Positions 58,162-59,503 of a stretch of 64,000 bases of DNA are shown here, in pieces. Under the pieces are notes generated by a model. The model searched no databases. It was not told where the DNA came from and saw only the letters and a program-made list of their open reading frames with translations. The DNA lies in assembly GCF_051903065.1 (NCBI RefSeq), contig NZ_CP178438.1, one strand, 5' to 3'. The stretch is from Escherichia coli. GTDB taxonomy: Bacteria; Pseudomonadota; Gammaproteobacteria; Enterobacterales; Enterobacteriaceae. Numbering within the stretch: position 1 is the first letter of the stretch; every line of letters starts with the position of its first letter. The position numbers were made by a program, and so were the translations under genes.

Positions 58162-58567
58162 TACCACCTCTTAAAAAAATGCCCACATAGTGTAGTGCGG
58201 AGCGCATGTTGGGTAAACAGAGTGTTAATGAGAAAATATTACAGAGGAGAATAATTTGTGTGTCAGGTATGTTTTTTGCATTCATAAAATGAATGCTCTA
58301 TATGTTGAAAAAATGAATTTTAAAGCTAAATAGTTTTACATCAAAAAAATAATAATATCATTTCTTGATTACCATGTGCATTTTTTATCTTACGAATATG
58401 CTAGTTTTATCTTACTAAATAAACGATTTGGTGACATGGATGATAATGTTTCAGGCTAAATGTGTGCTTATTACTTGGGCCTTTATGGCACTGTATTTAT
58501 TCATTAAATGGATGTTTGGTGGTTAATTATTATGGAAATATATGACAGTGAGGACATAAAGGTATAC

Positions 58568-59503
58568 ATGTTAACTAAAAGAATATTATTTTCTTTAATG
58601 CTAATAGTTTCACCAGGCGTGGTGGCAAGCGAGAAAGCGCATGAATTGTATGACAGCATATACGGTGGTCAACCTGCGCCCGATGTTATAAATACACTGC
58701 ATAAAATGGCTGAATTGGGAGATGTCGACGCGCAGAGCCTGTTAGGCTGGGAATATTATCAGCCTCGCTATGATACCAAACCTGATGTTCAGGAAGCGAT
58801 TAAATGGTTCGAGTTAGCCGCTAAACAAGGTGACAGAGAAGCTCCGTTAGCGCTGGGGAGTATCTACTACATCGGTGAGCTGGTGCGGGTGGATTATGCC
58901 AAAGCGTATGCACTATTTAATCAGGCCGCGCAATACGGTGTGAATTTAGCATGGTCCAGGTTGGGCATGATGTACGCCAATGGTCAGTATGTTGAGGTAG
59001 ATTGTAAGAAAGCGAAGGAATATCTTGATAAAGGTGTCCACATTTATGGTGGTCCGGAAGACTTTCTGGCTACATGTCGAAAAGACATGATTGACAGAAA
59101 AACGGTTGACGATACGTTACCCGTGATCACGGTTACCCGTTCTGGGATGCGGGATAATTTTTTAGATAAAGGTTTTTCCTGCATGGATAGCCTCTTCGCC
59201 ACCACCAATAAATTAGGCGAAGTGGCCAATCTTCGCGTGACATTCAGCATTCGTAGCCCATCCGGTAAGGAGATTAACCAAACGGTTGGCTTCGCGCCTT
59301 TCGGTTTAAACCGGCTGAATATTAGCTTTACTGATTACATATTTGATTCATTTACCAGTAATTCGTCTCTAATTCTTTATAAACCGGAATTTGAGCGAAA
59401 ATCTTGTGCAACTGTAAGGACCACAATCGTTGCCGCAACGGCAACCATTAACGGCAAGGATGTGGAGTTGCTGAAAGCGGGGGCAATTGAACAAAAGTGG
59501 TAA
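58568..59503 (+). CDS. Sel1-repeat (TPR-like) protein with signal peptide; C-terminal domain of unknown function
   Basis: Signal-peptide-like MLTKRILFSLMLIVSPGVVAS; Sel1-like repeats (DAQSLLGWEYY...; AIKWFELAAKQGDREAPLALGSIYYIGE...; AYALFNQAAQYG...MYANGQYV); AT-rich island. Confidence 0.65.
   Translation: MLTKRILFSLMLIVSPGVVASEKAHELYDSIYGGQPAPDVINTLHKMAELGDVDAQSLLGWEYYQPRYDTKPDVQEAIKWFELAAKQGDREAPLALGSIYYIGELVRVDYAKAYALFNQAAQYGVNLAWSRLGMMYANGQYVEVDCKKAKEYLDKGVHIYGGPEDFLATCRKDMIDRKTVDDTLPVITVTRSGMRDNFLDKGFSCMDSLFATTNKLGEVANLRVTFSIRSPSGKEINQTVGFAPFGLNRLNISFTDYIFDSFTSNSSLILYKPEFERKSCATVRTTIVAATATINGKDVELLKAGAIEQKW

Follow-up and report, generated by a model that had tools for sequence, protein, structure and literature searches.

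In this 64-kb stretch of Escherichia coli DNA (the window), the interval between yajR and cyoE carries a plus-strand gene (58568-59503) that K-12 lacks and that databases annotate throughout under the generic name 'tetratricopeptide/Sel1 repeat protein'. Its product joins a Sel1-repeat solenoid to a C-terminal beta-sandwich that is likely IrmA-like, contains four conserved cysteines and changes much faster than the proteins encoded on either side, and relatives of the gene occupy the same site in several genera. Taken as a whole, these properties are best explained by an exported two-module binding protein that faces a variable partner from outside the cell, a reading to which we give a probability of about one half. 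New here are the IrmA-like assignment, the recognition of a Sel1 plus IrmA-like family anchored beside cyoE, and its unusual rate of change. The practical yield is an improved annotation and a hypothesis; no new mechanism is demonstrated.

Architecture of the protein and its likeness to IrmA

The longest open reading frame (ORF) at the locus runs from 58508 to 59503 and would encode 331 residues. Translation likely starts at the ATG at 58568, with the start at 58508 probably unused, because RefSeq annotates ATG 58568, every homologue begins there with M-x-x-K-R and then a hydrophobic stretch, AAAGG sits 5 nt 5' of this ATG, and the 20 codons upstream are not conserved in Escherichia sp. Residue numbers follow the resulting 311-residue protein and equal those counted from 58508 minus 20. 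A preliminary description of this DNA had proposed a signal peptide, and the N-terminus does match a Sec-type signal, with K4 and R5, a 14-residue hydrophobic core (residues 6-19) and V-V-A ahead of S21. A20 is invariant in 16 homologues, and the N-terminus has no cysteine and hence no lipobox, so that we infer a signal peptide of the signal peptidase I type, cut between A20 and S21. Sec export would then yield a soluble mature protein of about 32.6 kDa. Four cysteines and no more occur in the protein (146, 170, 205 and 280), all invariant or nearly so across the family, as would fit an oxidising compartment. In UniProt, the orthologue from E. coli IAI39 (A0A0H3MM38) and related entries begin at the upstream ATG, have 331 residues and are called 'putative zinc-dependent hydrolase', a name that every domain and fold search we made failed to support.

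The N-terminal half is a Sel1 module. At least three Sel1-like repeats had been noticed from the sequence, and a scan with Pfam PF08238 returned three, at residues 54-89, 95-122 and 131-155 (E 4.6e-7, 2.2e-3 and 2.1e-2). Searching PDB sequences with phmmer matched Sel1 proteins only, and only over residues 25-170 (E 7e-41 to 1e-11); the top match, at E 7e-41, was E. coli c5321 (4BWR), also called EsiB, a protein that binds secretory immunoglobulin A. An AlphaFold 2 (AF2) model of the whole protein (predicted local distance difference test, pLDDT, 83.6; predicted template modelling score 0.81) places four helical hairpins in this part, which adopt the alpha/alpha hairpin solenoid fold of Sel1-like repeat proteins; residues 1-19 have pLDDT below 50 and are disordered in the model. 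C146 lies within the last Sel1 hairpin, from where it could form a disulfide with C170 of the linker helix. With c5321, Helicobacter HcpB and HcpC and Legionella LpnE the protein shares a signal peptide, predicted here, and cysteines in the repeat region; it differs from c5321 in having 3-4 repeats rather than 9-11, and from all of them in its additional C-terminal beta domain.

The C-terminal region had been described as beta-rich and left unassigned. In the AF2 model, residues 184-311 fold into 7-8 strands, and the domain modelled alone (pLDDT 77.7) is a fibronectin type III (FNIII)-like seven-stranded beta-sandwich that superposes on IrmA (5EK5). When this lone-domain model was compared with the PDB by Foldseek, IrmA was the sole match at E <= 0.001 (E 1.4e-4, probability 1.0, template modelling score 0.68). 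IrmA (C1275; PF18673) is a secreted interleukin-receptor mimic of uropathogenic E. coli (PMC4807369). Its Pfam profile matched 2 of 16 members of the present family at E <= 1e-3 (best 6.4e-5) and 4 of the 16 at E <= 0.1. Using hhalign, we aligned the family profile with an IrmA alignment built from the irmA gene of a B2 strain and obtained E 0.0067 over 91 columns, with a similar value for the distant subfamily alone; the alignment matches the motifs LxVxLxLK..G, FG and AT...NG and pairs C205 and C280 with C46 and C105 of the IrmA precursor. The corresponding Cys21-Cys80 disulfide of mature IrmA sets it apart from other FNIII proteins (PMC4807369), and the nearly invariant C205 and C280 are predicted to form the same bond. 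We consider it likely that the beta domain is homologous to IrmA and that this is the assignment missing from the preliminary description.

Both proteins come from Enterobacterales and have a signal peptide, predicted in the case of the window protein. They also differ: identity between the window domain and IrmA is only about 17-21%, the window domain follows a Sel1 solenoid in one polypeptide, in contrast to the free-standing 13-kDa IrmA, and the window gene lies beside cyoE whereas irmA belongs to an agn43-yeeR-irmA operon (PMC4807369).

The beta domain is rare. An exhaustive phmmer search with the C-terminal 156 residues against 1.84 billion representatives found only 23 clusters, in which most full-length members carry Sel1 repeats ahead of the beta domain; what remains is two spurious repeat proteins and a handful of short entries, either fragments or possible stand-alone copies. 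Scanning a genome collection with a profile of six sequences detected members in Escherichia sp., Pseudocitrobacter, six Pectobacterium species and Affinibrenneria, and a fold search of AFDB50 added many Salmonella enterica entries (441-617 residues, about 30% identity) together with Morganella, Proteus, E. fergusonii and Achromobacter. Going by source names, close homologues occur in E. albertii, E. fergusonii and cryptic Escherichia, and truncated ones in Shigella sonnei.

Synteny, loss and rate of change beside cyoE

The preliminary description gave yajR and cyoE as adjacent in K-12 and noted some 2.4 kb between them here. Genome comparison at the junction bears this out: the gap measures 2419 bp in the window and 148 bp in both K-12 BW25113 and UTI89, leaving about 2.27 kb of extra DNA relative to K-12. 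This variable segment holds the Sel1/IrmA-like gene on the plus strand and the toxin-antitoxin genes itaT and itaR. To its right, 43 bp (60538-60580) that include the cyoE terminator hairpin are common to the window and K-12; to its left, a local alignment shows homology to the K-12 spacer, at roughly 30% divergence, over the 105 bp or so next to yajR (58168-58271). This divergence upstream of yajR (58168-58271 against 1563-1670 of the K-12 locus L002) occurs although the flanking proteins are 99-100% identical, and the K-12-type spacer is also found in UTI89 (B2), which suggests that the yajR control region exists as two old haplotypes, one block-bearing and one empty.

The segment had been interpreted as an AT-rich acquired insertion, and syntenic homologues in Salmonella, Pseudocitrobacter and other Escherichia speak against that interpretation. 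In Pseudocitrobacter (L010) the order is an IclR-family gene, a long paralogue (494 residues, 43% identity), a short paralogue (308 residues, 59%), itaT, itaR and cyoE, the last three encoding proteins 91%, 91% and 93% identical to those of the window. A second locus (L006) has yajR, long paralogue, short paralogue, an itaT remnant, itaR and cyoE; in a third (L004) a long paralogue lies immediately next to cyoE and the toxin-antitoxin pair is missing; and in Escherichia sp. MOD1-EC7003 (L009) yajR and an orthologue (85%) are followed by unrelated genes in place of itaRT and then by cyoE. The Salmonella loci L023-L028 carry a family member convergent to cyoE that ends 82 bp from the cyoE stop, with CyoE itself 96% identical to that of the window. 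In Enterobacteriaceae the family thus has its home immediately 3' of cyoE, encoded on the other strand and frequently in tandem paralogues; the Pectobacterium and Affinibrenneria genes lie away from cyo, and the contigs of two distant members (P0044 and P0048) are too short for gene context.

The marks of a genomic island were also missing. We found no tRNA gene or flanking direct repeats at the site, and no integrase among the annotated or listed ORFs between yajR and cyoE, although no dedicated integrase search was made. Apparent plasmid copies were records of more than 1 Mb, evidently mislabelled chromosomes, and the single phage match was an unverified 2-kb fragment (L031). Judged by tRNA site, flanking repeats, copies on plasmids or phages, and absence in sister taxa, the block does not qualify as a horizontally acquired island. 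Synteny across genera and the lack of mobility marks make ancestral presence, with deletion in K-12, the simplest history, so that the gene is most simply read as an old resident of the site that K-12 lost. On the same simplest history, the family was ancestral to Enterobacteriaceae at this position and was duplicated, the long copy was lost in Escherichia, the short one was kept in E. coli, and the block was deleted outright in the K-12, B2 and O157 lineages. Because the Sel1 family occurs there without itaRT in several taxa, itaRT appears to have come in later, between the Sel1 gene and cyoE. A common inference fails at this locus: here, extra DNA relative to K-12, low G+C content and a toxin-antitoxin neighbour do not amount to recent acquisition.

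Several observations on other loci accompany this picture. Between the Sel1 orthologue and cyoE of L009 (4130-5830) lie a 315-residue ORF, which looks like a truncated M20-type amidohydrolase, and smaller ORFs that are not itaRT; the cargo adjoining the Sel1 gene is thus variable. The record L031 (OR851378.1, 'Salmonella phage S.Kent 1-2-1', 1993 bp), entered in the database as unverified phage sequence, is probably a fragment of a Salmonella chromosome. It contains a gene for a 503-residue Sel1 plus IrmA-like protein, and the signal peptide of the next paralogue begins 12 bp downstream, forming a tandem array. We found no nucleotide match between this fragment and the cyoE-adjacent Salmonella contigs; Salmonella therefore carries two or more diverged paralogues (40% identity). 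A second, distant type of family member is represented by P0052 (263 residues, partial, named E. coli) and A0A7W3I395 (E. fergusonii, 512 residues), which are 29-33% identical to the window protein and 44% identical to the 503-residue Salmonella form; no locus encoding this type turned up. STM0438, a possible homologue, appears among the virulence-database genes of one Salmonella Infantis paper.

Within E. coli, we compared the block by megablast with 5426 complete genomes, scoring it as present at coverage of at least 80%. It was present in 1367 (25%), and the Sel1 gene in 1363, so that the three genes travel together in this species. Carriers include HS and the B/BL21 strains, among them BL21(DE3), which gives an easy experimental handle. 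Decayed and disrupted forms also occur. In strain HH45 (locus L018, 3810-5056, from NZ_CP116411.1) the yajR-cyoE spacer is 1245 bp long and without any annotated gene. It retains 102 bp at its left end (94% identical), 94 bp at its right end and, at 70% identity, 314 bp that match the C-terminal half of the Sel1 gene, with about 590 bp unaccounted for; it represents an intermediate stage of decay from full block to K-12 deletion. In E. coli 100416 (locus L019, 2501-4213, from NZ_CM128593.1) an allele 100% identical to that of the window is split by IS1B, and truncated forms of 130-193 residues in the protein collection carry Shigella sonnei names.

To place the gene's rate of change beside that of its neighbours, we estimated nonsynonymous (dN) and synonymous (dS) divergence. 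Against the Escherichia sp. orthologue the Sel1 gene gave dN 0.081 and dS 0.34 (dN/dS 0.24), compared with dN/dS of 0.03 for cyoE and 0.05 for yajR; against the E. coli B allele it gave dN/dS 0.36 with 13 amino-acid differences, compared with about 0.1 for itaT and itaR. A ratio of 0.24 indicates purifying selection on a gene that is not a pseudogene. At the protein level, the Sel1 gene nevertheless changes 5-16 times faster than its neighbours. The same disparity extends to other genera, where identity falls to 59% for the Pseudocitrobacter short paralogue beside ItaT, ItaR and CyoE at 91-93%, and to 35-38% for the Salmonella copy. Identities of 35-60% next to neighbours at 91-96% mark the gene as a candidate for interaction with a host or competitor.

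Proposed function and rival explanations

We propose that the gene product would act as a soluble, Sec-exported two-module binding protein, in which a four-hairpin Sel1 solenoid is followed by a divergent IrmA-type FNIII-like sandwich, probably braced by disulfides C146-C170 and C205-C280. The Sel1 groove and the beta domain would bind another protein, either in the periplasm or after release; we infer a protein-binding role because Sel1 solenoids and FNIII-type domains are binding modules. The partner would be variable and come from outside the cell, given the very fast divergence, tandem duplication, patchy retention and frequent inactivation of the gene, and our guess is that it is a host protein or a competitor's protein. 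Among proteins of solved structure, the closest relatives of the two halves are c5321 and IrmA, each an exported E. coli protein that has been investigated as a host-interaction antigen. The family reaches into a quarter of complete E. coli genomes, Salmonella and Pectobacterium and, by database annotation, Proteus and Morganella.

A bolder form of this proposal, which we hold only tentatively and regard as somewhat unlikely, is that the family consists of conflict-driven exported decoy or immunity proteins, tandemly duplicated and diversified to track a variable incoming protein. Such proteins would have been kept beside cyoE for longer than a genus-level timescale, and the target may be a periplasm-acting toxin of a competitor, or else a protein from a phage or from the host immune system. 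If so, IrmA-type domains would serve recognition more broadly than a single 'interleukin receptor mimic' suggests: IrmA has so far been a stand-alone curiosity of pathogenic E. coli, and a divergent version fused to Sel1 repeats would widen the uses of the fold.

Several points weigh against the proposal of an exported binder with a variable partner. The overall dN/dS is below 1, and relaxed constraint would equally yield fast divergence. Homologues in plant pathogens (Pectobacterium, Affinibrenneria) speak against a mammal-specific ligand. The AF2 alignments were shallow, with 16 sequences, and support for IrmA homology at the sequence level is weak: the window protein itself scores E 1.6 against PF18673 and so falls outside formal membership of that Pfam family, and searches of PDB sequences with the C-terminal domain, as a single sequence and as two profiles, gave no meaningful match and missed 5EK5; their matches to hemocyanin, catenin and protein A were noise. 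The window beta domain is basic (isoelectric point 9.0) whereas mature IrmA is acidic (4.7), and its tail after the NG motif has 17 residues rather than 30, so that about 13 residues of the dimer-swapping C-terminal tail of IrmA are absent. IrmA swaps this tail into a dimer, is released into the medium and binds the interleukins IL-2, IL-4 and IL-10 (PMC4807369); with opposite charge and a shorter tail, neither the dimer nor cytokine binding can be transferred to the window protein. Literature searches on the BL21, REL606 and HS locus tags, the WP accessions, yajR-cyoE and Sel1 with yajR yielded no paper on the gene.

Among the rivals, the one that survives best, though we think it improbable, is that the protein is an endogenous envelope adaptor or regulator that binds an enzyme or sensor of its own cell, as ExoR, EnhC, MotX and AlgK do, with the beta domain as a docking module. 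Purifying selection fits this role, as do hosts that are gut, plant and environmental Enterobacterales, and the Sel1 repeats bring weak NCBIfam similarity to MotX, AlgK, ExoR and MerG, far below the cut-offs. However, an adaptor for a cell's own component is hard to reconcile with absence from three quarters of complete E. coli genomes, with divergence far faster than that of neighbouring genes, with the IS1-split allele, the truncated Shigella sonnei-named forms and the decayed HH45 remnant, or with the lack of any constant neighbour gene outside Enterobacteriaceae.

We rate lower still the idea of an orphan periplasmic immunity protein that would neutralise competitors' periplasm-acting toxins, such as type VI phospholipases, in the manner of the Tli5-type proteins PA5086-PA5088, its duplication and fast divergence tracking toxin diversity. 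A Sel1 protein with predicted export, very fast divergence and patchy retention would suit this idea, and the tandem paralogues of Pseudocitrobacter, L006 and Salmonella resemble the tandem paralogous arrays in which the periplasmic Tli5-type Sel1 proteins occur. For a Tli5-type gene, however, one would expect the cognate effector or type VI secretion system genes alongside, whereas in no locus examined did we see an adjacent effector, type VI secretion, Rhs or contact-dependent inhibition gene; the neighbours seen were yajR, itaRT, cyoE, the IclR-family gene and metabolic genes. PADLOC gave no match and NCBIfam nothing specific, and PA5086 scores below generic Sel1 proteins in similarity to the window protein. 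To our knowledge, the Tli5 proteins described so far consist of Sel1 repeats only, without the IrmA-like domain that the window protein has in addition.

It is very unlikely that the block is recently acquired, H-NS-silenced foreign DNA without a host function. Low G+C content (30% in the leader and 43% in the block, against 50% in the window), presence-absence polymorphism in E. coli and the adjacent toxin-antitoxin pair would all suit such an origin; the syntenic homologues in several genera, the lack of tRNA gene, flanking repeats, listed integrase and true plasmid or phage copies described above, and a dN/dS of 0.24, which points to selection for function, speak against it.

Least probable of all, and rejected on orientation and distribution, is a role as a third ItaRT component or as a periplasmic accessory or assembly factor for the cytochrome bo3 oxidase (cyo) operon: the gene is inherited with itaRT as one block in E. 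coli (1367 and 1363 genomes) and stands beside cyoE from Salmonella to Escherichia, yet it is convergent to itaT and cyoE and so co-transcribed with neither, occurs without itaRT in L004, L009 and Salmonella and away from cyo in Pectobacterium and Affinibrenneria, scores no better against COA7 than generic Sel1 proteins do, and is missing from K-12, which has a working bo3 oxidase. The published module, moreover, has two genes (PMC6125619).

Leader, itaRT module and other features of the locus

Coordinates of the gene, its parts and the surrounding features are collected in Table 1.

Table 1. Features of the yajR-cyoE interval, in window coordinates
Feature	Position	Strand	Details
yajR	56797-58161	-	left flank
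AT-rich divergent intergenic region between yajR and the Sel1 gene	58168-58567		30% G+C; five A/T runs of 6-7 nt
Variable segment	~58272-60537		about 2266 bp; in the window, not in K-12 or UTI89; from alignment to the K-12 spacer (left edge by local alignment)
Sel1 + IrmA-like gene	58568-59503	+	311 residues; RefSeq WP_045176456.1, 'tetratricopeptide repeat protein'
Predicted Sec signal peptide	58568-58627	+	residues 1-20, MLTKRILFSLMLIVSPGVVA, followed by SEK; sequence features
Sel1-repeat alpha-solenoid	58628-59041	+	residues 21-158; Pfam, PDB sequence matches, AF2
Linker	59042-59116	+	helix 166-178 bearing conserved C170
C-terminal beta-sandwich, likely IrmA-like	59117-59500	+	residues 184-311; divergent IrmA-type FNIII-like; motifs TNKLGEVANLRV, AATATINGK
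G+C-rich hairpin	59513-59546		between the convergent stops of the Sel1 gene and itaT; no T-run
itaT	59559-60101	-	GNAT aminoacyl-tRNA acetyltransferase toxin
itaR	60085-60396	-	DUF1778/TacA-family antitoxin; 17-nt overlap with itaT
cyoE terminator hairpin	60542-60565	-	present in K-12 too; right edge of the variable segment
cyoE	60581-61471	-	right flank

The roughly 400 bp upstream of the gene had been singled out as very AT-rich with A/T tracts, and the composition agrees: its core (58200-58500) has 26.5% G+C, and the leader as a whole falls below the 1st percentile of 400-bp windows across the 64 kb (31%). H-NS binding is plausible for DNA so AT-rich. In E. coli B the leader shows 96% identity and in Escherichia sp. 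85%, and the spacer 5' of the Pseudocitrobacter long paralogue is AT-rich as well (35% G+C). Because it is conserved along with the gene, the leader looks like a regulatory region common to the divergent yajR and Sel1 genes and not like a mark of recent import. Promoter-like hexamers in it were no commoner than in shuffled sequence. Only four other stretches of the window fall below 34% G+C over 400 bp (46831-47791, 6221-6821, 32621-33381 and 48071-48711), the lowest reaching 25% near 47031. An Rfam search of 58000-60700 gave no match at E <= 1, and we do not claim the hairpin at 59513-59546 as a terminator, its stability being not significantly above that of shuffled sequence.

The toxin-antitoxin pair that the preliminary description placed next to the gene is ItaT/ItaR. 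The GNAT protein matches the ItaT structure 7BYY over its whole length (residues 1-180, E 1.6e-117), which identifies the pair as the published ItaR-ItaT module, a type II toxin-antitoxin system of E. coli HS and BL21(DE3) (PMC6125619, PMC7367177). The ItaRT papers treat a two-gene module and leave the neighbouring Sel1 gene unmentioned (PMC6125619, PMC7367177). The Sel1 gene is not a constant, co-oriented component of the module and is independent of it.

Upstream of itaR lie two near-identical palindromic boxes of 19 nt, ATACGGCTATCAACCGTAT (60450-60468) and ATACGGTTATTAGCCGTAT (60505-60523), which bracket the best sigma-70-like match of the region (TTGACA, 17 nt, TAAATT; 60501-60473, minus strand). 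The two boxes probably serve as the operator for repression of itaRT by the ItaR-ItaT complex (PMC6125619).

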